64,000 nucleotides of DNA. It comes from a virus (Duplodnaviria > Heunggongvirae > Uroviricota > Caudoviricetes). Below the pieces are notes generated by a model. The model was given only the letters and a program-made list of their open reading frames with translations, did not search any database and was not told where the DNA came from. Made by a program: the position numbers and the translations under genes. Shown one piece after another: positions 3,837 to 36,560 of this stretch (position 1 is the stretch's first letter; each line of letters starts with the position of its first letter). Location: IMG/VR virus record IMGVR_UViG_3300045988_150439; one strand, written 5' to 3'.

Positions 3837-4505
3837 ATGACCAAGATCTTTGTGGTTGGCGGCACAAAGGGCGGGCCTGGCAAATCCACCGTTGCCCAGC
3901 AAATTGCCGTTTGCCTGAAAGTCAAAAAGAAGAAGAAGGTTTATATCACTGATATAGATATTCAGCGCACGACAACAAGCTGGTGTGAAGACCGTCGACA
4001 GAACGAAGATCTTGAGCTGATTCCTTTTGCATACGTTCAGGATGACATCATTAAGCACCTAAAATCGCTTCAGGGTAGAGCTGAGTTTGTAGTGGTAGAT
4101 GCTGGTGGCTTCGACTCCGAAATTCAGCGACAAGCGATGCTGATGGCTGACGTTATCATTATCCCGCTGCGTCCTAAGCGTCGTGATTTGAAATCTTTAC
4201 GTGACATCGATCCTATTATCGACAATGTTCGCAATGTAAACGATAAAGTGAAGGTCCGCGCGGTCATGAACCAGTGCCCGGCTTTGCCATCACAAGTGTC
4301 TCGCATTCTGGCGGCTAAAGAGATTGTTGAGACGTTTGGAATCGAGTCTGCGCCAGTCAATCTATATAACCGCAACGTCTATGATGATGCGGAAGAGTCT
4401 GGTCGTTCTATCTTTGAAATGACCGGTAGCGAGCGCGACAAAAAGGCGGAAGCCGAGTTTGAAGAATTTGTAGATTATCTGTTGAGTCTGGAGGAAGAAG
4501 AATAA
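3837..4505 (+). CDS. parA: ParA/Soj-type partition ATPase
   Basis: Deviant Walker A GGTKGGPGKST at N-terminus; 222 aa; stop overlaps start of downstream gene (TAATG). Confidence 0.8.
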   Translation: MTKIFVVGGTKGGPGKSTVAQQIAVCLKVKKKKKVYITDIDIQRTTTSWCEDRRQNEDLELIPFAYVQDDIIKHLKSLQGRAEFVVVDAGGFDSEIQRQAMLMADVIIIPLRPKRRDLKSLRDIDPIIDNVRNVNDKVKVRAVMNQCPALPSQVSRILAAKEIVETFGIESAPVNLYNRNVYDDAEESGRSIFEMTGSERDKKAEAEFEEFVDYLLSLEEEE

Positions 4506-4864
4506 TGTCCATGAAAATGGGTGACCTAGCAAAGCGCAAAGAGCCTGATGCACCGGCTAAGAACACAACTCCTTTGCGCCAACCAGTCAGACCACAGGGA
4601 CGCCCGACTCGTGGCAAAGAGAAAATTAAAAGCCGCACAATGTCACTGGAAGACGAATACTTCGAACTGCTGGAGATGATGAAGTTCATCCCTCGCTTCG
4701 AGAAGTTCACTCGTTCTGACGTGATTCGAGCAGCCATTTTCCATCTGGCAGAGAAGTCACCGCAGGAAATCGAGGACATCGTGAAGCTTAACGAGGCGAT
4801 CACAGCTGCCGACGTTACGATGCGTACCGATGAAATTAAACGAGAGTTGATGAAGAAAGGTTGA
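4505..4864 (+). CDS. small partition DNA-binding protein (ParG-like ribbon-helix-helix)
   Basis: 119 aa; basic N-terminus then RHH-like segment RTMSLEDEYFELLEMM...RSDVIRAAI; translationally coupled to parA. Confidence 0.5.
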   Translation: MSMKMGDLAKRKEPDAPAKNTTPLRQPVRPQGRPTRGKEKIKSRTMSLEDEYFELLEMMKFIPRFEKFTRSDVIRAAIFHLAEKSPQEIEDIVKLNEAITAADVTMRTDEIKRELMKKG

Positions 4865-4867
4865 TTA

Positions 4868-4890
4868 TATTGGGCGTTTGTTACGCCCAA
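4868..4890. repeat. perfect inverted repeat ttgggcgt / acgcccaa (hairpin or protein-binding site)
   Basis: Read directly; lies between the par operon and the AT-rich KAP gene. Confidence 0.4.
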
Positions 4891-4915
4891 TATATGAATT
4901 AAAGGATTGATACTA

Positions 4916-6610
4916 ATGGAATCGATAGAATCATTTCTAAAAAATTTTCTAGTTTCAGATCATCGGGTTGCCGTCATAAAAGGAGATTGGGGCGTTGGTA
5001 AAACTCATTATTGGAATAGTTTTTATACTAAGCATTCTGAAGGATTAGATTTTAATGCATATTCGTATGTTTCTTTGTTTGGGGTTAACTCTATTGGTGA
5101 TATTAAAAAAACTCTTTATCATTGTGCCACACCAATTAATGAAAAGAAATATAAAGAACTAATTTTATCTGAAACGGATCGAACTATGATTCGTTATAGA
5201 AATGGGTTTTGGGGATGGTTGAAATACAACTCCTTGTCAAAATTTTTAATACATTTCGGAAAGAACGATTTTTTTGGGTTCAAAACAGATAACCTGCTGT
5301 CATCTCTTGAGTATAAATTTGTTAATAATTATTTGGTTTGTATTGATGATGTTGAAAGAAAAGGTAATTCGCTAGAAGTTAAAGAAATTATGGGGGTAAT
5401 TGATGAATTAGCAAGAAGAAAAGGTTGCAAAGTTGTTCTAATTTTAAATGAAGATAATTTACATGATGAAACTGCAAAAAAACAGTTTTTAGAGTACAGA
5501 GAAAAAGTAATTGATGTCGAAATAAAATACGATCCTACGCCTGAGAAGAACTTACGTAAAGTTTTTTATGAAACTGATTCTGATTTTCTTTTGTTAAAAG
5601 TCTTAGCAAATGACTTAGGCATTAAAAATATCCGTATATTAAATAAAATAAAAACATCTCTGGTTAATCTTAGGAATGAGCTAAGCTTGGCAGAGGATAA
5701 GGTTAGAGAAAGTTTTATCAATAGATTGGTTCTGTTTTCAGTGGTTTACTATTCTGGTGTTCCAGGTGTTGATTATGCCTTGTTTAAAGAATCAATTAAA
5801 AACATACATGTATTTGATTACATGTTAGATGATAAAAAGGATGATTCTGTATATTCATTTATTAATAGTCTTGATATTATTTATGAACGAGCGGAAATTG
5901 CTTTCGATGATGACATAGATTTTTATCTCAAGAATGGTTATCTTTCTACTGAAAGCAATATTCGAGGTATAATAGAAGAAAAAAATAAACAATATAAAGA
6001 ACACAAGGCTTTATGTGAGGTTAACAATGTTTGGGATATTTTTAGTGACTCATTCAAGGACAATGAATCTGAGTTTATTTCTAAGATAAAATGTGTAATT
6101 AACGACAATCTTTCACACATACCTGTTGCTCACTTCATAGGCTTGATTGATATCTTAAATAGATTGTTGATTGATTGTGATAGTTATATAGAGGCATATG
6201 CAGATGCCTTTGTTAGCCAAGATGATGCTTATACTGCTTTTCGGAATTTGTATGTAGAGATATTTGGTAACGAAAAGTTAGGTCTGCTAATTCAAAAAAA
6301 ATTGATGGATAAGAAGCCTGAAGAGACTAATTTAGAGAATGTTTTATACAAAATAATTGAAGGCAAATTTAATCATAGTGACATAGCATATCTTAACAGT
6401 TTCTCTGAAGATGATTATTTAAAGTGGATATTATCCCGCAATCAGGATGCTTTGGATTTAGTGAGAAAGGGGTTGCTCAGATTCAAAAGTATGCAAGAAC
6501 TAACAGAAGAACAGCAAAAAATCACGAATAAAGCAATAGGTGCATTAACGAAACTGGCCTCTAGATCAAGTCTTAACAAACTACGTGTGAGCAGATTGCT
6601 TAATAATTAA
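4916..6610 (+). CDS. KAP-family P-loop NTPase
   Basis: ORF 4907..6610; ATG 4916 follows AAAGGA. Walker A GDWGVGKTHYW near N-terminus, DDVER Walker B-like; coding region clearly AT-rich relative to neighbours. Confidence 0.6.
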   Translation: MESIESFLKNFLVSDHRVAVIKGDWGVGKTHYWNSFYTKHSEGLDFNAYSYVSLFGVNSIGDIKKTLYHCATPINEKKYKELILSETDRTMIRYRNGFWGWLKYNSLSKFLIHFGKNDFFGFKTDNLLSSLEYKFVNNYLVCIDDVERKGNSLEVKEIMGVIDELARRKGCKVVLILNEDNLHDETAKKQFLEYREKVIDVEIKYDPTPEKNLRKVFYETDSDFLLLKVLANDLGIKNIRILNKIKTSLVNLRNELSLAEDKVRESFINRLVLFSVVYYSGVPGVDYALFKESIKNIHVFDYMLDDKKDDSVYSFINSLDIIYERAEIAFDDDIDFYLKNGYLSTESNIRGIIEEKNKQYKEHKALCEVNNVWDIFSDSFKDNESEFISKIKCVINDNLSHIPVAHFIGLIDILNRLLIDCDSYIEAYADAFVSQDDAYTAFRNLYVEIFGNEKLGLLIQKKLMDKKPEETNLENVLYKIIEGKFNHSDIAYLNSFSEDDYLKWILSRNQDALDLVRKGLLRFKSMQELTEEQQKITNKAIGALTKLASRSSLNKLRVSRLLNN

Positions 6611-14474: not shown

Positions 14475-14549
14475 GATGGTGTAGCTCAGCGGTAGAGCAG
14501 TTGGCTGTTAACCAACTGGTCGGTGGTTCGAATCCACCCACCATCGCCA
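14475..14549 (+). tRNA. tRNA-Asn (anticodon GTT)
   Basis: Cloverleaf by eye: acceptor gatggtg/caccatc, D-arm gctc..gagc, anticodon stem gttgg/ccaac loop ctGTTaa, T-arm ggtgg-ttcgaat-ccacc, encoded CCA. Confidence 0.85.
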
Positions 14550-14551
14550 AT

Positions 14552-14627
14552 GCCGGTTTAGCTCAGTTGGTAGAGCACCTGCCTTGTAAGCAGGATGTCA
14601 GCGGTTCGATCCCGTTAACCGGCACCA
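14552..14627 (+). tRNA. tRNA-Thr (anticodon TGT)
   Basis: Acceptor gccggtt/aaccggc, anticodon stem cctgc/gcagg loop ctTGTaa, T-loop ttcgatc, encoded CCA. Confidence 0.85.
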
Positions 14628-14720
14628 ACACAACAGGTAAGAGCATTGGGCGAATCGGCGATACTGACCCACAAGCCCGTAAATCGATAGAGTCAGACCA
14701 GTGCTCTTACCGTTGTGAGG
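14626..14720 (+). ncRNA. long hairpin unit 1 (possible small stable RNA)
   Basis: 15-bp stem acaacaggtaagagca / tgctcttaccgttgt (one mismatch) enclosing ~55 nt; shares stem-base cacaac/gttgtg with units 0 and 2. Confidence 0.3.
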
Positions 14721-14764
14721 AAGTGCAGCTCTTTGAAGCAACCAGAAGATAAGCATCTGGCTTC

Positions 14765-14850
14765 ACAACACAACGATAAGATCATTACGGTTAATCGTCG
14801 TTCATGTGCACAATGACTGGTCGAAAGGTAGTGATCTTACCGTTGTGATG
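14765..14850 (+). ncRNA. long hairpin unit 2 (possible small stable RNA)
   Basis: 16-bp stem cacaacgataagatca / tgatcttaccgttgtg (one mismatch); 3' flank cttaccgttgtga[g/t]gaa shared with unit 1. Confidence 0.3.
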
Positions 14851-14947
14851 AATGCACAGGCTGATGTGCCGCAACTACAGTAGTGCGCGCTTTGCGGGGC
14901 TTGCTACAACCCTGTGTCGGAGTTCAGCACCGACCATCACAATAGCT

Positions 14948-15034
14948 GGAGAGTAGGGAGCATGGTGCTCAAGCGGTCTTGAAAACCGTCCCATTGCGCA
15001 AGCGATGATGGTTCGATTCCATTACTCTCCGCCA
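14948..15034 (+). tRNA. tRNA-Ser (anticodon TGA), type II
   Basis: Acceptor ggagagt/actctcc, anticodon stem gcggt/accgt loop ctTGAaa, long variable arm, T-loop ttcgatt, encoded CCA; about 87 nt. Confidence 0.75.
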
Positions 15035-28322: not shown

Positions 28323-28593
28323 AGAATTATGGCGCTTGTTGAGGAAGTCACTCCTCTTACGCACTTTGTTTTGCCATGCCGGCAGTTAGCTTCTGCCTTT
28401 GACTATTCATGCGGCAACCCCGCATTTCGCCACAATGGGCAATTCACTTTTATGGAATAAACTGGCCGTTGTGTCGATTTAATTAGCATGGCCTTACCAT
28501 GCTAATTTATTCAACTTGTAAAATCCTACAAATCTATCCACTCAGGCTTACACCGTCTTCGTTATTGTAGAAATGAGGATCATCAGCGTTGAA

Positions 28594-28809
28594 TCAGCTT
28601 AGAGCAACGACATTTGCTGCTGCTGGGCCTTTAGCCCCATTCTCGATAGAGAATTCGACCTGCTGGCCTTCTTCCAAAGTGCGGAAATTATTACTCTGAA
28701 TTGCCGAAAAATGTACAAAAACATCTTTACTGCCATCAGCAGGAGAAATAAAGCCAAAGCCTTTATCAGAGTTAAACCATTTTACTAAACCAGTCATTTT
28801 ATTAGACAT
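28594..28809 (-). CDS. cold-shock protein (CspA family)
   Basis: ORF 28594..28905; probable ATG 28809 follows AAGGTAG. About 71 aa with RNP1 KGFGFI and RNP2-like VFVHF. Confidence 0.8.
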
Positions 28810-29138
28810 AGATACTACCTTCTTAATTTTGTGAGCCACATAGTGCGGCGAGAATTTGATCTGTATAGATTGGGACTTACTTAGGCACTTAAGGAGGAGA
28901 CTCACGAAGAAGGGAAATCAGAAGATAACACTGAACTGAGACTGCTTTACTAAAACTGCTTACATAAGGTCTGTCTTGCAAACCAACGATGCTATTAACG
29001 CATACCCCTTCTTTTCATGCAACCTTTATTTTTCAAAGATAACTAATTTTTGTCACCATTGGTTTAGTAAACGTTAACGAACCAGACGATGCCAGACACC
29101 TTTACAGAGAACAGATGCCCGCCAATTGGCGGGCATCA

Positions 29139-29702
29139 TTATGCGCATTTCGCAATATCTTTGCGGCGTTTAATCAGTTTCTCCGCAATTTGCTCTATTT
29201 CGTTGAAATCTTTCGAGACGCTGTTTCGAAGCGCCAGATTCCATTTACTCAAAGTTCGGGCATTTTGGACAATTTGATCGCCCTCTTTAAGTCGTCCGTT
29301 ATTCATGAGCCATTCAGCCACATCAGCCCAATCCCAGAGAGGAGACTGGCCTTTTATGCGTTGTACAGGGCAAGGGAAGTCGCCGCTTCCGCGCTTACCG
29401 TCTTTGAGCAACGCCACTGCCTGGCGAGACAGGTCTGTCAGTTCCGCGATATCGCTTAAGCCCACAAGAGCCGAGTCGACGGATTCAACAATTGCACCGA
29501 TACCGGCTGATTCAATATTGTCGACCGCAGATGCGATAGCTGCATCAAGTGATTGTGCTTCGCGGTCAAATTCTACATAGACGGAGTTTCCATATGCGCA
29601 AATTAGCGCATCGTCACAGCCGTTTTGGTACAGCGCGTCTTCCAGTCCTTCCGTCTCATACGATACGCCTGAGAGCGTCAGAGTGAAGTTATAAAGCGCC
29701 AT
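29139..29702 (-). CDS. HicB-like antitoxin candidate
   Basis: ORF 29139..29738; probable ATG 29702 follows AAAGGA. N-terminal MALYNFTLTLSG..YETEGLEDALYQNGCDDALICAYGNS resembles HicB; HTH-like segment later. Confidence 0.35.
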   Translation of the reverse strand: MALYNFTLTLSGVSYETEGLEDALYQNGCDDALICAYGNSVYVEFDREAQSLDAAIASAVDNIESAGIGAIVESVDSALVGLSDIAELTDLSRQAVALLKDGKRGSGDFPCPVQRIKGQSPLWDWADVAEWLMNNGRLKEGDQIVQNARTLSKWNLALRNSVSKDFNEIEQIAEKLIKRRKDIAKCA

Positions 29703-29762
29703 AGTTTTCCTTTGAAGATAGTTGGACAGTTTCTGCAAAAGGCGGCTAATGCCGCCTTGAAA

Positions 29763-29987
29763 TCATTTACAACGATCAACCATTCGTTTGATCTGTTTGG
29801 CATGGTTTTCGGGATTACCCGGAGTCGACCATACGCTCATTTGGTGAGTTTTGTGTTCACCTTCTGGATTACCGCATCGCAGTCTGCAAAAACAATGTGC
29901 AGCACCACCAGCTGCTACCCAGATCCAGCCTTTACTTAATGCATAGTCAATGGCTGCTTGAATATGCTTATTCGGATGTTGCTTCAT
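29763..29987 (-). CDS. HicA-like toxin candidate
   Basis: 74 aa; GW..H...PG...H pattern loosely like HicA; lies upstream of the HicB-like gene. Confidence 0.3.
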   Translation of the reverse strand: MKQHPNKHIQAAIDYALSKGWIWVAAGGAAHCFCRLRCGNPEGEHKTHQMSVWSTPGNPENHAKQIKRMVDRCK

Positions 29988-30241
29988 TCGCCTCCGATAA
30001 TAGTATTCTATTCACAGTGTTGACATCTGTCAACGGCGACTGAATTTCATCCGTTCATGCCACACCCCCATCCATCTCATGTATGTGACCTAAAGATGGT
30101 CAGCACAGCTTACCAAAATAAGACAACTAATTATCTTCGGTGATCTCAATATTTTCCCCTGAACAAAGTTGACATGACGCCATAAACCCGTTCTCTGTTT
30201 GATATAATTGATACAGATTTTATAAGTAGGAACCTATTAGA

Positions 30242-30673
30242 GTGAACACTGATATTTTTTCTAAAATCATGGCCGATCTGGAGTTCGACCGCGACAACCT
30301 TGAGGAAGTATGGCGTAAACAGCCACGGCTTTTAATGGAGTATGGGTCAAAACTAGCGCAGGCAGATCGAGATGTCGCAGAGGCAAAACTTAACCTTGAA
30401 GCTGTTGAAGCAAAGCTATACGACACAGAGCGTAAGAACTTGAGTATGAACGGCATTAAGTTCAACGAGTCTGTACTGGACGCTAAGGTTAAAACAAACC
30501 CACAGTATCTGTCTAAACGGCAGAAGTTGGATGAAGCACGGCACATAGCAGACATATACAAACATGCTGTCGCCGCCTTTTCGCATCGCCGAGACATGAT
30601 CGTTCAGGCGTCAAAGATGGCCATCGTTGAATTAGAGCGATTAGGCTCTGAACGCTTTATTACTCCCCGTTGA
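30242..30673 (+). CDS. hypothetical protein
   Basis: 143 aa ORF (alternative ATG 30269); helical, charged. Confidence 0.4.
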   Translation: MNTDIFSKIMADLEFDRDNLEEVWRKQPRLLMEYGSKLAQADRDVAEAKLNLEAVEAKLYDTERKNLSMNGIKFNESVLDAKVKTNPQYLSKRQKLDEARHIADIYKHAVAAFSHRRDMIVQASKMAIVELERLGSERFITPR

Positions 30674-30790
30674 TTTTTGATAGATAATAAGTAAGTACTG
30701 ATCTATCATTTAACAGCTCGAAAGAGCCACGAATGAACGAAAGCCCAACGCGCATAGCGCCATCGGCCAAATCACAACAAGGAGAAACAC

Positions 30791-31819
30791 ATGTCTAAGA
30801 CATTACTTGATTTGCTTAACAAAACTCGTGAAGACATTGCCGCCAAACGTGGCAACAACGTTGATCTGACTCGCTTAAAAGACGGCGTCAACTATATCCG
30901 CATCTTCCCGAATAAAGACGACCCAAACGGTAAGTTCTTCCAGACTTTCGGTATGCACTACGTTAAGTATCAGAACGAGGAAGGTAAAGAAGCAACCAAC
31001 GCTTATATTTGTGAGCAACATACTCACGGTCGCGCTTGTCAGCTATGCGAAATGGTTATGGAAGGTCGCGCTCGTCACAAGGGTAACAAAGCAATGGAAG
31101 AACGCATCGGTCAAATGCGTGCCACTCCTCGCTACCTGGTCAACGGCATTCTTTCTGCTCGTGAGGATTTCGCAGATGCTGAGAAATGCCAGTTAATCGA
31201 GCTGCCGTCTACTGTATTCGATGATATCTGCAAAGCAATCACCGAAGACATCGCTGATGATATCGGCAATCCACTGAGCAAAGAGGAAGGCTACGCATTC
31301 CTGATTAAACGTACTGGCTCTGGTCGCGATACCAAATATGACGTCTCGCCTAAGCGTAAAGTCTACAAAGGCGATATCGAAGATAAATTCTGGAACACCC
31401 AGCATGATCTGATCGCATACGCAAATCAGGCTGATGAAACTCGTCTTCTGTCGACAGTTCGCACTATGGGTCGTCTGATTGGTATCGCTGCACCAACTGC
31501 CGCAGCATCTGCACCAGCAATTTCCTCAACCGCGAAAACATCGGCTGCGGCACTACCTGGATTTGGCTCTGTCACTGGTCATACAGAAGGAGCGACGGCT
31601 GTAGCAACCGCGCACACACCGGCTTCTGAACCAACCAGTCTGGTTGATGAAGAAATCCTCCGTGCCGTTGAAACTGAATTTAAACCAGAAGCAAGTTCCG
31701 CTGCCGTTGCCGTATCAGTCAAAGAGTCTGAAGCAGTCGCAGCGACATCTGTAGCAACCGCATCTGCGACGGAAGATGAAGGTCTGGATGACCTACTGAG
31801 AGAGCTGGACTCTCTGTAA
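30791..31819 (+). CDS. single-stranded DNA-binding protein (gp32-like)
   Basis: 342 aa; Cys/His cluster CEQHTHGRACQLC, Ala/Ser-rich linker, acidic tail DEGLDDLLRELDSL; conserved acaaggagaaacacATG start context. Confidence 0.55.
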   Translation: MSKTLLDLLNKTREDIAAKRGNNVDLTRLKDGVNYIRIFPNKDDPNGKFFQTFGMHYVKYQNEEGKEATNAYICEQHTHGRACQLCEMVMEGRARHKGNKAMEERIGQMRATPRYLVNGILSAREDFADAEKCQLIELPSTVFDDICKAITEDIADDIGNPLSKEEGYAFLIKRTGSGRDTKYDVSPKRKVYKGDIEDKFWNTQHDLIAYANQADETRLLSTVRTMGRLIGIAAPTAAASAPAISSTAKTSAAALPGFGSVTGHTEGATAVATAHTPASEPTSLVDEEILRAVETEFKPEASSAAVAVSVKESEAVAATSVATASATEDEGLDDLLRELDSL

Positions 31820-31835
31820 TCCCATTACGTGACCA

Positions 31836-31864
31836 GTAAGGCGTCTACGGACGCCTTACTTTTT
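31836..31864 (+). terminator. rho-independent terminator
   Basis: gtaaggcgtc-tacg-gacgccttac followed by ttttt, just after the SSB stop. Confidence 0.6.
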
Positions 31865-31879
31865 GGAAGGAATGTACCG

Positions 31880-32824
31880 GTGAATTATCTCTTCGTAGAT
31901 GGCAATAGCCTGGGTTATTACCACCAACAATCTGACAAATTGCACAACGGCGAAATGGAAGTTCAGGCTGCTTTCGGCTTTGTTAAGAACGTCCGTCGTT
32001 ATGCCTCCATCCTCCATGCCCGACCTATGATTCTTTGGGATGGATTTAGTGACAAGCGTCGCGACTTTTACCCGGACTACAAAGCAAATCGCGACGACGA
32101 TCCTGATATGAAAAAGATGAAGGAAGGCTTTGCTGTCCAGAAGCCATACATCCTCAAAATGATGACCGCGCTTGGTGTTAACCAAATCATTGCAAAAGAT
32201 GCAGAAGCGGATGATCTGGCCGGACTGCTGGTATCCCGCATGGCACCGCAGCCAACCGTTGAACACATCTATCTATTAACAGGCGATAGCGACTGGCTTC
32301 AGTTAGTTCGCGAAAACGTAAGCTGGGTAAGCCTGCGTGAAGACGCCAAAAACAAGCAGGTTAATTTTGAGCAATTTGCGGAGCTGACAGGATTCGCCAC
32401 GCCTCGCGCATTTTTGGAAGCAAAAGCATTACAAGGCGATAACTCGGACAACATTAGCGGTGTTGGTGGCATTGGTGCTGGCGGTGCGAAAGAGCTGCTG
32501 CATGAATGGGGAAGTGTCGCAACGATGGTACGCGGCATCAACGACGGCTCAATCGTGGTTAATAAAGGGCGTCATAAGACCGCCTTCAACAAACTAGCGA
32601 AGAATGCCTTCAACGAGAAAACAGGCTGTCGAATGCTCGAAGCGTTCAAGAGAAACATCACGCTAATGAACCTGATTGAGACGAAGTTTCCGCCTACCGA
32701 AATCGAAACAATCAAAGGCAATCGTGACGTGAAAGCATTCGAGCAACTGTGCTACGAGCTGAATTTCCGTTCGTTCCTTGAAGACCTTGAAGTGTTTGTT
32801 CTTCCATTCGAAAGGTATTGCTAA
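31880..32824 (+). CDS. 5'-3' exonuclease / flap endonuclease
   Basis: ORF 31829..32824 overlaps the terminator hairpin; probable GTG 31880 follows GGAAGGA. Motifs FVDGNSLGYY, DSDNISGVGGIG. Confidence 0.75.
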   Translation: MNYLFVDGNSLGYYHQQSDKLHNGEMEVQAAFGFVKNVRRYASILHARPMILWDGFSDKRRDFYPDYKANRDDDPDMKKMKEGFAVQKPYILKMMTALGVNQIIAKDAEADDLAGLLVSRMAPQPTVEHIYLLTGDSDWLQLVRENVSWVSLREDAKNKQVNFEQFAELTGFATPRAFLEAKALQGDNSDNISGVGGIGAGGAKELLHEWGSVATMVRGINDGSIVVNKGRHKTAFNKLAKNAFNEKTGCRMLEAFKRNITLMNLIETKFPPTEIETIKGNRDVKAFEQLCYELNFRSFLEDLEVFVLPFERYC

Positions 32825-33090
32825 TGCTTAAATCGATTATTAATGGCGCTACAACCACCCCTACCCAACTGGCAAAAGAGATTGTCTTTTATCACGGTGA
32901 ATACGCTGTCATCGCACTGCCGTCAATTCTGGGCGCTGCCGGAATGAAAGCGACAGATCGCGAGTTTGGATTAGTCAGCGAGCAGGTCGTAAAAATCCTC
33001 GCTCGTGTATCCAGACTCCTTAATCACGATGCGATTGTATTCGACGAATCCGCCGCTTTAAAACGAATCAACGAAACAAAAGGAGCCTGA
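32818..33090 (+). CDS. hypothetical protein (90 aa)
   Basis: ORF only; overlaps FEN stop, ends just before recA. Confidence 0.4.
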   Translation: MLMLKSIINGATTTPTQLAKEIVFYHGEYAVIALPSILGAAGMKATDREFGLVSEQVVKILARVSRLLNHDAIVFDESAALKRINETKGA

Positions 33091-33092
33091 TC

Positions 33093-35432
33093 ATGGCAAA
33101 AGGAAAATCCGCACTGGCACTTGCTCTGAAAAAGAAAATCGGTAGCAACGACGAAATTCAGAAAGTAACTCATTGGATTGACACAGGCTTTCCTCCGTTA
33201 AACAAAGCTATTTCCGGTCGTTACGATGGCGGTTTCCCATGTGGTCGTATCGTAGAAGTATTCGGGCCACCAAGCGCGGGGAAATGTGTTACCGCAGACA
33301 CCATGCTGCTGACGGAGCGTGGAATGGTAACAGTGAAAGAGTTGTTTGAGATTGAAGGGTACAAAGCGACATGCACTACTCGCGATGTAGAGCATAACGT
33401 TGGACTCATCAATGAAAATGGCGTGATAGAGAAGACCTCACACCTGACATGGAACAACCGTCGCAAATTCAAGCGTATTAAGCTGGCATCAGGCGGTTAT
33501 ATCGAGGCTACGTTCCGTCACCCAATCCGTGTGGTTGACGACTTAGGTAATGTCGTCTGGCGACATGCTGAAAAAATCAGTGTAGGCGACACGATTCCTT
33601 CAATGGTTGGCACACATCAATTCGGCGATCAGCACCTGGATGCCAATATCGCAAAACTGATGGGCTATTTAATTGCTGACGGATACGTGGCCTCTGAAAA
33701 TTCAGTGAATTTTTCTAACACAGATCCTTTCATCAAGGATGAGTACTACCGCCTCATTTCGCTGGTATCAGACAAGATGCCAGTTACGAGAAAACATAAC
33801 GGCTCGGAAGACCATGTGCTGTTTAGCAAAGAGGTGCGTTCGCTGCTTTTTAAAGAATATGGTCTGGAGTATGAGAAAGCTGCTGGCAAGCAGGTTCCGT
33901 TGAGTGTGCGTCGCGCCAATAGCGAGGCTCAAATTGCATTCCTTCGCGGCTACTTTGAGCTGGAATGCCACGTCAATGATGGTCGCTGCATTGAGGTTGT
34001 GAGCGCGAGTGGGCTGCTGCTACAGCAAATTCGCCTCATGCTCCTGAATCTGGGGATTACGTCAACTATCTCTGAAAAACACGTCGCGGGTTATGAAAAT
34101 ACATATTACCGGCTGTCATTCAGTGGCTCTAATTACGACCTTTTTCTGTCAACGATTGGTTTCGAATCTCCGGCACGTTTATCAGTGGCAACCAAACGGG
34201 ACATTGGTTTTGACCGCACTTACTCAGGCTATGTTCCGCACATCAGCGGCTTAGTGAAATCACTCTACGAGTCGCTCACCAAGACCACCCGTGAAGACTA
34301 CGCTCTGGTAGACCACGTTATTGGCCGCGGCGATCGTGTCGGAATAGACAAACTGCGAGAAATCTATGTCTCCTTCATTGGCAGAAAGAATCGTTTTAAC
34401 GAGCATCTGTTTGCACAACTGGCAGCGGTAATTGGCTCTAACTTGTTCTACGACGAAGTCGTGGCTATTGAGGAAGGTGAAGCACCAACGTTCGACGTAG
34501 CGATGCCGGAAACACACTCTTTCTGGTCTAACGGGATTATCAGCCACAACACATTCCTTGCAACAGCAGCGATGATCTCCGCACAGAAACAAGATGGTCT
34601 GGCGGTATTCCTCGATCATGAGAACAGTTTTGACGTTGGCCTGGCTGTAGCCAATGGCCTGAACGCAGATGAGGATGACGGTCAGTGGGTATACAAGCAG
34701 CCAGATACCTTCGAAGACTCTGTAGAGTTGATCGGCACAATACTTAAATTGGTTCGTGATGAAGAGCTTATCCCCGAATCAGCACCTATCTGTATCGTGG
34801 CTGACTCTCTTGCGTCTATGGTTCCGAACTCCAAAGCCGAGAAGTTCGAAAAGATGGCTGAAGGCACTGCCAAAGACAAAGATCAGCTAAACATGAACGA
34901 CAATACGGCACTGGCTCGTGCGACGAGTGCGAACTTCCCTACTCTGGCTTTGTGGGCACGCAAATACAACGCCTGCATCATCTTCTTGAATCAGGTTCGC
35001 ACAAAAATCGGTGTAATGTTTGGCGACCCTACTACGTCGCCAGGTGGAGATTCACCGAAGTTCTACGCTTCTGTACGTATCCGTCTTGGTGCATCGGTGA
35101 TGAAGGATGGTAAAGAGAAGATCGGCCAGGACGTAGGCGCAGAATGCATCAAAAACAAAGTTGCACCACCGTATGGCAAATGCACCTGGAAATTCTACTT
35201 CGATCCTACTCGTGGCCTCGACGTTATCGAATCGCTCGTCGAGTACATGCTGGAAGAAGGATACCTGCCAAAGAACGCCAGCGGGCGAGTTGAAATTGGT
35301 GACAAGAAATACACCAAATCGCAGATCGTCGAGATGTATCGGGAGAAGCCATTAGCAGAAATCATTGCTGCGTTACAGACGATAGATGACCGACGAGAGA
35401 AGACATCACCAACAGAAGAACTAGAAGATTAA
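33093..35432 (+). CDS. recA: RecA-family recombinase interrupted by an intein
   Basis: 779 aa; exteins (64 + 293 aa) match RecA: P-loop GPPSAGK|T, IIFLNQVRTKIGVMFGDPTTSPGGDSPKFYASVRIRLG. Confidence 0.8.
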   Translation: MAKGKSALALALKKKIGSNDEIQKVTHWIDTGFPPLNKAISGRYDGGFPCGRIVEVFGPPSAGKCVTADTMLLTERGMVTVKELFEIEGYKATCTTRDVEHNVGLINENGVIEKTSHLTWNNRRKFKRIKLASGGYIEATFRHPIRVVDDLGNVVWRHAEKISVGDTIPSMVGTHQFGDQHLDANIAKLMGYLIADGYVASENSVNFSNTDPFIKDEYYRLISLVSDKMPVTRKHNGSEDHVLFSKEVRSLLFKEYGLEYEKAAGKQVPLSVRRANSEAQIAFLRGYFELECHVNDGRCIEVVSASGLLLQQIRLMLLNLGITSTISEKHVAGYENTYYRLSFSGSNYDLFLSTIGFESPARLSVATKRDIGFDRTYSGYVPHISGLVKSLYESLTKTTREDYALVDHVIGRGDRVGIDKLREIYVSFIGRKNRFNEHLFAQLAAVIGSNLFYDEVVAIEEGEAPTFDVAMPETHSFWSNGIISHNTFLATAAMISAQKQDGLAVFLDHENSFDVGLAVANGLNADEDDGQWVYKQPDTFEDSVELIGTILKLVRDEELIPESAPICIVADSLASMVPNSKAEKFEKMAEGTAKDKDQLNMNDNTALARATSANFPTLALWARKYNACIIFLNQVRTKIGVMFGDPTTSPGGDSPKFYASVRIRLGASVMKDGKEKIGQDVGAECIKNKVAPPYGKCTWKFYFDPTRGLDVIESLVEYMLEEGYLPKNASGRVEIGDKKYTKSQIVEMYREKPLAEIIAALQTIDDRREKTSPTEELED
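33285..34550 (+). mobile_element. intein with LAGLIDADG homing-endonuclease domain (422 aa) inside recA
   Basis: Starts with Cys (CVTADTM), ends His-Asn before Thr +1; dodecapeptide motifs LMGYLIADGYV and FLRGYFELECHV. Confidence 0.75.
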
Positions 35433-35437
35433 TTATC

Positions 35438-35464
35438 AGGCGTCCAAACGGACGCCTTTTTTGT
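35438..35464 (+). terminator. rho-independent terminator
   Basis: aggcgtcc-aaac-ggacgcct followed by tttttg. Confidence 0.65.
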
Positions 35465-35525
35465 ATGTTGAAAATGTATAAGCACTTACTTATCATTAGC
35501 ACACAATAACCACATAGGAAAACAC

Positions 35526-35726
35526 ATGATCAAACTCTATCTTATGGCAGTAGTTACAGGTCTATCTGTAGTTTTCATCTACTGTTTGCTGGTTCCGTCG
35601 CTGATCTCTACTAAAAGCGACATTGCCGTAATGCTTGGAATCATCGTTGCTTTTGGCGCTCCTGTGATCGGGTTTATTGCAGGTCGTAAGTTTCTAAAGT
35701 CACTCATCAATTCGAAGGAGAAGTAA
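35526..35726 (+). CDS. small membrane protein (66 aa)
   Basis: Two hydrophobic segments; conserved ggaaaacacATG start context. Confidence 0.45.
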   Translation: MIKLYLMAVVTGLSVVFIYCLLVPSLISTKSDIAVMLGIIVAFGAPVIGFIAGRKFLKSLINSKEK

Positions 35727-35729
35727 GTA

Positions 35730-36560
35730 ATGAAGAAAGGTTTACTGGCAGTGATCGTGGCCGCTGTTTGCACAATGGGTCTTACTGGCTGTGATCGCGT
35801 GGAGCCTGGATACGTTGGCATCAAAGTAAACAAATTAGGTGAAGACAAAGGGATTGGTGAAGTGGTTGGCGTTGGTCGCCAATGGACAGGTCTTAACACC
35901 GAACTTTACGTATTCCCGACCTTCAAACAAATGAAGACCTACGACGAGCCGTTCACATTCCAGATGAGTGACGGTACTGCTATTGGTCACAAAATTGGCG
36001 TTGCGTATCTGGTTAATCGTGACAAGGTAACGACGGTGTTCCAGACCTATCGCAAAGGCGTAGACGATATCACCGAATCAGATCTGCGTCAGAAAATTGC
36101 CGACTCTCTAAACCGTTTGGCAAGCCGTATGACCACTGACTCATTTATCGACGGTGGTAAGGCACAATTGCTGGACAACGCACTGAAAGATATTCAGAAA
36201 GAGATGTCTCCGGTTGGTATTGAGGTACTGAGCTTGTCATGGGTTGGAAAGCCTGATTACCCAAAAACCGTCATTGAGTCTATTAACGCCAAAGTAACGG
36301 CTAACCAGCGTACTCTGCAACGTCAGCAGGAAGTTGAACAACGTAAAGCTGAGGCGAATATGCTACGTGAACAGGCTAATGGTGAAGCTGATGCTATCCG
36401 TGCTCGTGCGCAAGCAGAAGCAGACGCCATTCGTCTGCGCGGTGAAGCTCTGCGTCAAAACCCGAACGTTATGGAGCTGGAAGCCATCAATAAATGGAAT
36501 GGCCAGTTACCGCAGTACATGACTCAAGGGGCTAACACTCCTTTCATTACAGTGAAATAA
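35730..36560 (+). CDS. SPFH/band-7-like lipoprotein
   Basis: Signal peptide with lipobox LTGC; SPFH-like core; C-terminal Ala/Glu/Arg-rich coiled coil. Confidence 0.5.
   Translation: MKKGLLAVIVAAVCTMGLTGCDRVEPGYVGIKVNKLGEDKGIGEVVGVGRQWTGLNTELYVFPTFKQMKTYDEPFTFQMSDGTAIGHKIGVAYLVNRDKVTTVFQTYRKGVDDITESDLRQKIADSLNRLASRMTTDSFIDGGKAQLLDNALKDIQKEMSPVGIEVLSLSWVGKPDYPKTVIESINAKVTANQRTLQRQQEVEQRKAEANMLREQANGEADAIRARAQAEADAIRLRGEALRQNPNVMELEAINKWNGQLPQYMTQGANTPFITVK

Follow-up and report, generated by a model that had tools for sequence, protein, structure and literature searches.

An intein with a LAGLIDADG endonuclease domain in the Walker A motif of a phage-plasmid RecA-type recombinase

The interrupted recombinase gene and its neighbors

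The window, i.e. the whole 64,000 nt stretch of DNA analyzed here, comes from a Caudoviricetes virus record (IMGVR_UViG_3300045988_150439). A single open reading frame at positions 33093..35432 (+; 2340 nt including the stop codon) is identified from the open reading frame list, Pfam and PHROG as an intein-containing RecA-type recombinase of 779 aa, with a predicted precursor mass of 86.6 kDa. The Shine-Dalgarno sequence AAGGAG (33080..33085, +) is read directly from the sequence 7 nt 5′ of the ATG, and a terminator-like hairpin followed by a T-run, seen by consensus scan only, lies directly 3′ of the stop codon (35438..35457, +). A promoter scan of positions 30000–36000 gave a number of sites no higher than in shuffled sequence.

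The open reading frame displays three parts. The N-extein (33093..33284, +) has 64 aa and finishes with the first part of the Walker A motif, GPPSAGK (precursor residues 58–64). The intein (33285..34550, +) follows with 422 aa, precursor residues 65–486; it starts at Cys65, ends in SHN and consists of a HINT domain with a double-motif LAGLIDADG endonuclease inside. The C-extein (34551..35432, +) has 293 aa plus the stop codon, and its first residue, Thr487 (Thr+1, codon ACA), completes Walker A (GK|T). Pfam RecA matches the whole protein at 3.4e-36 (125.5 bits, cut-off 27) in two stretches, the one in the C-extein covering residues 484–703. LAGLIDADG_3 also matches in two stretches (2.4e-17, 63.4 bits), Intein_splicing matches residues 73–486 (2e-11, 44.4 bits, cut-off 35.8), and PHROG 9666 matches the precursor over its full length. 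Excision of the insert in silico restores GPPSAGK|T and gives a RecA-like protein of 357 aa and 39.1 kDa, with the predicted ligation junction peptide GPPSAGK-TFLATAAMISAQK (beginning ...GPPSAGK-TFLATAAM...). The free intein has a computed mass of 47.5 kDa.

An alignment with E. coli RecA (PDB 3cmu) shows the junction between K and T of GPESSGKT, with the N-extein reaching K72. This agrees with an earlier note on this DNA, made from the sequence alone, which had placed the insertion exactly between the Lys and Thr of GPPSAGK|T. From the split P-loop it is a sound inference that recombinase activity would depend on splicing.

The same note had proposed aligning the exteins to RecA/UvsX. The likeness to RecA held, with PDB RecA structures matching at E ~1e-35 and aligned through the core, but a close relationship to UvsX did not, as UvsX structures match at only 1e-9 to 1e-10; a UvsX orthologue as the host protein is ruled out by these scores. 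PHROG 97, "UvsX-like recombinase", matches at 1.2e-91, the name of that family being broad. The score for TIGR02012, the housekeeping RecA equivalog, is 132.5 bits and falls below the cut-off of 325.3. By these profile and structure matches the extein is a diverged phage-type RecA and not a cellular RecA.

The gene is 99.3% identical at the nt level to CYRAN_55, annotated as "RecA" in phage Cyrano. A search of 5426 E. coli genomes found the gene at 0 chromosomal places, all copies being on plasmids or phages. What the intein interrupts is the recombinase gene of an SSU5/pLF82-type phage-plasmid and not chromosomal recA. It shares an operon with genes for a 5′-3′ exonuclease (FEN-like) directly upstream (31829..32824, +; Pfam 5_3_exonuc_N 9.6e-25, 5_3_exonuc 6.8e-12) and a gp32-like ssDNA-binding protein (30791..31819, +; Pfam gp32 1.7e-66). 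A further open reading frame (30242..30673, +) shows a weak similarity to a UvsY-like mediator (phrog_231, E-value = 1.9e-4), and UvsY is annotated in Cyrano as well.

Intein motifs, predicted fold and relation to known inteins

Block A (CVTADTMLLT; 33285..33314, +) carries the nucleophile Cys1, and NCBIfam intein_Nterm TIGR01445 matches residues 65–147 (1.5e-08, 35.5 bits, cut-off 24.5). Block B (IEATFRHPIRV; 33501..33533, +) shows T76 and H79 in the TxxH arrangement T76-F-R-H79, which is kept in relatives. Blocks F and G (PTFDVAMPETHSFWSNG / IISHN; 34485..34550, +), with D404, H421 and N422, are nearly invariant in relatives, and the C-terminal end, PTFDVAMPETHSFWSNGIISHN|T, displays His-Asn followed by Thr+1. 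The presence of Cys1, T76xxH79, D404, H421-N422 and Thr+1 supports the assignment of the insert as a canonical class-1 intein. The Cys start, the His-Asn end, the Thr that follows and the two LAGLIDADG motifs had all been pointed out in the earlier note and were verified in the sequence. A profile search of the insert, which the note had suggested, places both Intein_splicing and TIGR01445 above their cut-offs, with the intein blocks present.

LAGLIDADG motif 1, KLMGYLIADGYV (intein positions 124–135; 33654..33689, +), has the acidic residue D132, and its segment LMGYLIADGYV aligns with GYLIADG of the TliVMA intein. Motif 2, AFLRGYFELECHV (intein positions 218–230; 33936..33974, +), has E225 and E227 within FLRGYFELECHV and is non-canonical, with ELEC in place of DADG. 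Among LAGLIDADG enzymes, Glu is also recognized as a catalytic residue. ELE[CS] is kept in relatives P0004–P0011, and an alignment shows both endonuclease acidic residues kept in relatives.

An AlphaFold model of the intein has a pLDDT of 81 and a pTM of 0.85, with low confidence for the C-terminal residues 409–422. The top Foldseek matches of the model are the TliVMA intein (7qss, E-value = 7.8e-20, TM 0.68), PI-PfuI, PI-PkoII and PI-SceI. Many HINT structures are matched, and the endonuclease part fits the endonuclease domains of TliVMA, PI-PfuI and PI-PkoII and also I-DmoI (TMt 0.54–0.60). The modeled intein thus displays a HINT fold, and its endonuclease part the alpha-beta-beta-alpha-beta-beta-alpha double-domain LAGLIDADG fold.

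A word-indexed protein search gave 13 relatives. Those with as little as 27% identity still have Thr+1 and the splicing residues of the A, B, F and G blocks. Cys30, a second Cys of the intein, is kept in Bacillus phage fHSPT3 and in the closer relatives that are RecA-borne but is missing from Twort-type and more distant relatives. Three relatives (P0007, P0012, P0013) show degenerate endonuclease domains.

The intein is already known. In Table 1 of Topilina, Novikova, Stanger, Banavali and Belfort (2015, NAR 43:6631; PMC4513877), E. coli, Enterobacter and Salmonella are entered with RecA inteins at "insertion point c2 (65-486)", the same residues of the same host gene. E. coli MS 145-7 is among the strains in the c2 table; its plasmid NZ_CP146657 is 100% identical to the window over the intein DNA and 99.2% over the whole gene. 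The accessible text of that paper treats the host as bacterial or E. coli RecA. The sequence does not differ from that account; what the present analysis adds is the phage-plasmid location, the homing signature and the polymorphism of empty and occupied alleles. A search of the literature for this intein together with SSU5, pLF82, pHCM2, Cyrano, phage-plasmid and E. coli RecA gave nothing on the element besides the 2015 paper. The Cyrano/LF82 paper has no discussion of the recombinase gene, and PMC12282955 was rejected as a source, its mentions of "intein" being engineered toxin-inteins. In RefSeq some copies are named "intein-containing recombinase RecA" but most only "LAGLIDADG family homing endonuclease".

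The Pyrococcus horikoshii (Pho) RadA intein (point c1; PDB 4e2t) shares the structurally identical insertion point at the P-loop end, GK|T, with Thr+1 and a host of the RecA superfamily, and its HINT fold matches (Foldseek E-value = 4.4e-05). It is, however, a mini-intein of ~170 aa that lacks an endonuclease; it comes from an archaeon that is a hyperthermophile, and its sequence similarity is low. The 2015 authors concluded that the Pho RadA and E. coli RecA c2 inteins are independent invasions, and conditional splicing is shown for the Pho RadA intein (accessible text of PMC4513877).

Closer in sequence are P-loop inteins of Herelleviridae, e.g. the ORF006 helicase of Staphylococcus phage Twort and the RecA of Bacillus phage fHSPT3, with 31–34% identity over all 422 aa and E-values down to 3e-54. 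These are phage-borne also and show the same Walker A junction, GGK|C...NHN|T or S. But they are found in phages of Firmicutes, the Twort-like host protein is an SF2-type helicase and not RecA, and the sequences are far too diverged for recent transfer.

The M. tuberculosis PI-MtuI and M. leprae inteins likewise interrupt a RecA. The title of a paper cited in PMC4760082 describes PI-MtuI as a LAGLIDADG homing endonuclease. Their insertion points, a at residue 252 and b at residue 206 respectively, are placed by the accessible text of PMC4513877 at the monomer-monomer interface and not the P-loop. These inteins reside in the chromosomal housekeeping recA of actinobacteria, and Foldseek matched their structures in the HINT domain only (E-value ~1e-3). 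The endonuclease-bearing archaeal and yeast inteins (TliVMA 7qss, PI-PfuI 1dq3, PI-PkoII 2cw7, PI-SceI 1vde) show the same architecture, a double LAGLIDADG domain set into a HINT domain, and are the best structural matches, with a TM of 0.59–0.68 for the first three. Sequence matches to this group reach E-values of 1e-7 at 10–21% identity, but the hosts differ (V-ATPase, RNR, DNA polymerase).

Empty and occupied alleles and the signature of homing

Precisely 1266 nt (33285–34550) are absent from the gene in CMS-2020a, SSU5, Kp 1825-KPC53 and LH09-a; the empty site in CMS-2020a reads GGTCCTCCAAGTGCAGGGAAA|ACGTTCCTTGCAACAGCAGCG. Because natural alleles without exactly these 1266 nt exist, the insert is far beyond chance. 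The predicted spliced protein is identical to the intein-free alleles at 350/357 positions (phage CMS-2020a) and 340/358 positions (SSU5). The CMS-2020a identity, with the two Pfam RecA stretches, bears out the earlier reading of the protein as RecA-like once residues 65–486 are removed. The reading of the insert as a homing-endonuclease intein likewise agrees with the splicing residues, the profile matches, the predicted fold and the precise empty alleles.

Both alleles are common. The occupied allele is found in 114 E. coli genomes and the uninterrupted allele in 129, all on plasmids, and in PLSDB the intein is present in 248 of 721 plasmids with the gene. With about half of the alleles still empty, the intein has either not finished spreading or meets resistant sites. 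Hundreds of plasmids keep the reading frame open over its 2340 nt. IS-sized insertions (L009, L011) additionally break the gene in some plasmids, where it is thus dispensable.

The intein and its exteins show discordant divergences. The nt identity of the intein to that of the window is 97.0% in Klebsiella p4727 and 96.8% in E. hormaechei, but exteins are 80–86% and upstream genes 72–82% identical. Between Klebsiella p4727 and E. hormaechei, the intein identity is 99.84% and the extein identity 85%. The same intein, 97–99.8% identical, therefore recurs in three extein lineages that are only 80–86% identical, and vertical inheritance in one clonal plasmid lineage is ruled out by this discordance. 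Within one lineage, intein-plus and intein-minus alleles differ almost only at the junction, with exteins 97–99% identical, and the exchange boundaries lie at most a few nucleotides from the junction in each lineage pair.

Synonymous changes near the junction track the presence of the intein. The Thr+1 codon is ACA in 6/6 intein-plus alleles and ACG or ACC in the 4/4 intein-minus alleles examined. When a uniform co-conversion tract was sought in the compared alleles, this codon was the only constant feature of intein-plus alleles; on the N side the length of the tract ranges between 0 and about 16 nt, and the N flank of the intein-plus allele GMF065 is identical to that of the intein-free CMS-2020a. 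The dN/dS is 0.09–0.16 for the intein and 0.11–0.18 for the endonuclease part, which has zero stop codons in five alleles. HINT segments give 0.03–0.20 where synonymous differences permit an estimate. A near-identical intein across diverged exteins with junction-tight boundaries speaks for site-specific gene conversion and against random crossovers. The discordance, the junction-proximal synonymous changes and the dN/dS of 0.1–0.2 together read as a clear signature of recent homing.

Proposed splicing and homing, and the biology of the phage-plasmids

The element is very probably a class-1 intein with a LAGLIDADG homing endonuclease, with putative splicing and DNA-cleavage activities, that parts the Lys of Walker A from its Thr in a phage-plasmid RecA-type recombinase. 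The gene would be translated as an 86.6-kDa precursor with a split ATP site. The splicing route would start with an N-S acyl shift at Cys1 and pass through a transesterification onto Thr+1 and the cyclization of Asn422 to an O-N shift. It would yield a recombinase of 39.1 kDa whose GPPSAGKT loop is intact, and the endonuclease would be set free at 47.5 kDa. Should an allele without the intein share the cell, e.g. after a related phage-plasmid has co-infected or superinfected it, the endonuclease would cut the empty site GGGAAA|AC(N)TTCCTT, and repair off the intein-containing copy would copy in the intein and a few flanking nucleotides.

Ordinary homologous recombination between co-resident phage-plasmids could likewise move the intein.

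The intein could in addition be more than a selfish passenger. Splicing might be conditional, so that the recombination module of the phage-plasmid would be switched post-translationally; the trigger could be temperature, ssDNA, DNA damage or, by way of Cys1 and Cys30, the redox state. The recombinase would in that case turn active only once plasmid maintenance gives way to lytic replication. We consider this reading unlikely. The insertion point matches that of the conditionally splicing Pho RadA intein (accessible text of PMC4513877), Cys30 is kept in the closer RecA-borne relatives and fHSPT3, and the neighboring SSB and exonuclease genes encode products that would serve mainly in lytic growth. 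However, the sequence demonstrates no regulation, Cys30 is missing in Twort-type and more distant relatives, and half of the natural alleles work without the intein. In addition the Pho-type extein-intein lock could not be modeled for the E. coli RecA precursor, according to the accessible text of the 2015 paper. Such a post-translational switch, if real, would operate in a phage-plasmid of Enterobacteriaceae that is clinically widespread, and would have its analog in the RadA intein of archaea, which occupies the same site.

More improbable still is an intein that splices but has an inactive endonuclease, spread by vertical descent and ordinary homologous recombination between phage-plasmids in one cell. 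The non-canonical ELEC of motif 2, the variable N-side flanking tract, the E. coli occupancy of only about 50% and the degenerate endonuclease domains of P0007, P0012 and P0013 are consistent with such inactivity. But the endonuclease part is stop-free in five alleles with a dN/dS of 0.11–0.18, both acidic residues are kept in relatives, and the intein is 97–99.8% identical over three extein lineages with boundaries that hug the junction. An insert that fails to splice in its native setting, leaving a dead recombinase tolerated as host RecA or other phage functions substitute, is highly improbable: searchable literature gave no splicing or cleavage experiments on this RecA intein, and IS-sized insertions interrupt some copies, but the splicing residues are intact, the HINT segments have a dN/dS of 0.03–0.20 and the 2340-nt frame is preserved in hundreds of plasmids.

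An actively splicing and homing intein thus appears to be the best explanation. As a discovery little is gained, the intein having been published in 2015 and some RefSeq names being already right. The "LAGLIDADG" naming, however, hides the recombinase of very common Enterobacteriaceae phage-plasmids (pLF82/Cyrano, SSU5 and pHCM2-like). As occupied and empty alleles are found at about 1:1 in E. coli, and the intein in three diverged extein lineages, these phage-plasmids are a convenient natural system for measuring homing between co-resident phage-plasmids in a tractable host. As a mesophilic, E. coli-native counterpart of the Pho RadA P-loop intein, the element may also be used to test the regulation of recombinases by P-loop inteins.

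The interrupted recombinase and its intein

The precursor is a single long open reading frame of 779 aa (33093–35432, + strand), with a ribosome-binding site (AAGGAG) 7 nt 5′ of the ATG and a hairpin with a T-run directly 3′ of the stop codon. Residues 58–64 read GPPSAGK, residue 65 is Cys and residues 484–487 are S-H-N-T; thus the insert consists of residues 65–486 (422 aa, DNA positions 33285–34550, + strand, read from the open reading frame). Computed masses are 47.5 kDa for the insert and 39.1 kDa for the joined flanks (357 aa). A Pfam search of the precursor places the RecA domain (3.4e-36) in two stretches, one on each side of the insert, LAGLIDADG_3 (2.4e-17) also in two stretches and Intein_splicing (2e-11) at residues 73–486. 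Searched against the PDB, the joined exteins hit bacterial RecA at an E-value of about 1e-35, and UvsX and RadA structures with far lower scores; the extein junction aligns between the K and T of E. coli GPESSGKT. The earlier note had described a protein that is RecA-like once residues 65–486 are removed, with an insert that opens with Cys, closes with His-Asn before a Thr, carries two LAGLIDADG-type motifs and lies between the Lys and Thr of GPPSAGK|T in the Walker A P-loop. Every statement of that observation is correct and the observation is confirmed; its interpretation as a homing-endonuclease intein is supported. A housekeeping RecA identity is rejected, since the TIGR02012 equivalog score is 132.5 bits against a cut-off of 325.3; the host protein is thus a diverged, phage-type RecA.

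The insert shows the complete set of canonical splicing blocks: block A (CVTADTMLLT, Cys1), block B (IEATFRHPIRV, T76 and H79), block F (PTFDVAMPETHSFWSNG, D404) and block G (IISHN, H421 and N422), followed by Thr+1, the first C-extein residue. Endonuclease motif 1 is KLMGYLIADGYV (D132). Motif 2, AFLRGYFELECHV (E225 and E227), is unusual, yet its ELE is kept across the aligned relatives. An AlphaFold model of the intein, built with an 11-sequence alignment, has a pLDDT of 81 and a pTM of 0.85. Its best structural match in the PDB is TliVMA (7qss, E-value = 7.8e-20, TM 0.68); the other top matches, PI-PfuI, PI-PkoII and PI-SceI, are also endonuclease-bearing inteins. Mini-inteins come next, among them Pho RadA and Mtu RecA, together with I-DmoI, a free LAGLIDADG enzyme. 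A PDB sequence search agrees with these matches. A second cysteine, Cys30 (KATCTTR, window 33372–33374), is kept in the alignment in the closer RecA-borne relatives P0004–P0007 and Bacillus phage fHSPT3, and is missing from Twort-type and more distant relatives. Cys30 could pair with Cys1 as a redox-sensitive disulfide.

Empty alleles and probable homing

The gene is found without nt 33285–34550 in phage CMS-2020a, SSU5 and Klebsiella phage 1825-KPC53. The CMS-2020a protein is identical to the predicted ligated product at 350 of 357 positions and reads ...GPPSAGKTFLATAAM... across the junction. Among the computational results, these natural empty alleles argue most strongly that the insert is removed, or missing, with no damage to the protein. 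The gene matches 721 PLSDB plasmids and the intein 248 (Escherichia 123, Klebsiella 71, Enterobacter 41, Citrobacter 6, with a few more elsewhere). Complete E. coli genomes carry the occupied allele in 114 cases and the uninterrupted allele in 129.

Intein and surroundings differ in divergence. The inteins of Klebsiella p4727 and E. hormaechei are 97.0% and 96.8% identical to that of the window, as against 80–86% for the adjoining exteins and 72–82% for the upstream genes. Klebsiella and Enterobacter alleles share 99.84% identity in the intein versus 85% in the exteins. Inside each extein lineage, intein-plus and intein-minus alleles are 97–99% identical, and within 60–75 nt around the junction they show only synonymous differences, immediately beside the junction. 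The Thr+1 codon is ACA in 6/6 intein-plus alleles, and ACG or ACC in 4/4 intein-minus alleles; on the N side, the tract is between 0 nt (GMF065) and about 16 nt long. dN/dS is 0.09–0.16 for the intein and 0.11–0.18 for its endonuclease part. Taken together, the discordant divergence, the junction-restricted differences and the dN/dS values are what repeated, recent and site-specific homing, driven by a functional endonuclease, would be expected to leave behind. A formal alternative is that phage-plasmids sharing a cell exchanged the intein by ordinary recombination.

The intein-free gene of E. coli pLH09-a-C (NZ_CP100547.1) resembles the intein-plus type of the window in its N flank and SSU5 in its C flank, ACCTTTTTGGCAACGGCAGCA, which suggests a mosaic recA or possibly a cleavage-resistant empty site. 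E. coli plasmid p2 (CP059946.1, locus 931–1703) carries a 771-bp insertion inside the intein-coding sequence, bordered by a duplication of 8 bp (gene nt 616–623); its size fits an IS1-type element, and the PLSDB gene table of CP059946.1 has no CDS over the gene. In E. albertii p3RM15112 (CP043255.1) the intein is intact and, at 94% nt identity, more diverged than any other copy seen; the C-extein holds an insertion of approximately 1.16 kb (locus 4079–5243) near gene nt ~1770, with an overlap of 3 nt. The insertion probably represents an IS element, and inactivation of the gene is likewise probable.

Phage-plasmid setting

At 99.3% identity, the gene matches CYRAN_55 ("RecA") of Escherichia phage Cyrano. 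Cyrano and pLF82, the E. coli LF82 plasmid, have equal length (108,379 bp) and identical matches, and other E. coli plasmids reach 99.9% gene identity; all are SSU5-like phage-plasmids. A search of 5426 complete E. coli genomes locates the gene at 252 places, all of them on plasmids and none chromosomal. Upstream, in the same orientation, are a weak UvsY-like candidate, a gp32-like SSB (Pfam 1.7e-66), a 5′-3′ exonuclease and a 90-aa open reading frame; thus the interrupted gene is part of a phage recombination module. In Cyrano, HicA/HicB toxin-antitoxin genes are annotated directly upstream of the module on the opposite strand, and size-matched open reading frames lie at window 29139–29987 (−).

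At 28569–28987 (−), the sequence matches the Rfam cspA thermoregulator 5′UTR over its full length (183.9 bits, gathering score 78), and a cold-shock-domain open reading frame follows (28594–28905, −; Pfam CSD 4.1e-33). Thus the phage-plasmid carries its own cspA-like gene and RNA thermometer; no gene is annotated in the matching stretch of the Cyrano record. With recA as the common anchor, a cluster of three tRNAs (Asn-GTT, Thr-TGT, Ser-TGA; 14475–15034, +) is offset by ~2.5 kb from its Cyrano position; upstream of the module, the window is thus incompletely colinear with Cyrano.

Relatives and standing of the intein

A tblastn search of phage genomes showed full-length intein relatives (31–34% identity) in Herelleviridae, where the interrupted proteins include helicases in Twort-like, Listeria and Enterococcus phages and RecA in fHSPT3. 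In the two whose insertion point was examined, Twort (ATNGGK|C...NHN|T) and fHSPT3 (GKPGGGK|C...NHN|S), the intein is at the same Walker A point. Metagenomic RecAs with 27–45% identical inteins are also split there, as judged where junction and extein are present in these partly truncated sequences. The element is thus part of a phage-associated P-loop intein lineage. Motif 1 is lost or replaced in three metagenomic or genomic RecAs split at this point (P0007, P0012 and P0013); their endonuclease domains appear to be decaying, further along the homing cycle. The extein of P0007, which is on a 550-kb contig, is a typical bacterial RecA.

The intein is already known. Table 1 of the RadA/RecA intein survey by Topilina, Novikova, Stanger, Banavali and Belfort (NAR 2015, PMC4513877) lists "c2 (65-486)" in eight E. 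coli, two Enterobacter and one Salmonella strain; the survey notes that c2 and the Pyrococcus horikoshii RadA intein (c1) interrupt the P-loop at exactly the same position, and describes the two as independent invasions. The plasmid of MS 145-7, a strain in that table, has intein DNA 100% identical to that of the window. A literature search found no splicing or cleavage experiments on the c2 intein. The precursor is annotated inconsistently. Most RefSeq plasmids name it "LAGLIDADG family homing endonuclease", GenBank records use "recombinase RecA", and a few Enterobacter RefSeq records have "intein-containing recombinase RecA"; PHROG 9666, which is this protein, carries the label "unknown function". 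Conditional splicing is unlikely on present evidence, and only this, if true, would make the element of greater interest. What is added here is the phage-plasmid context, a roughly 1:1 occupied/empty polymorphism and, spanning three extein lineages, a clear signature of homing.
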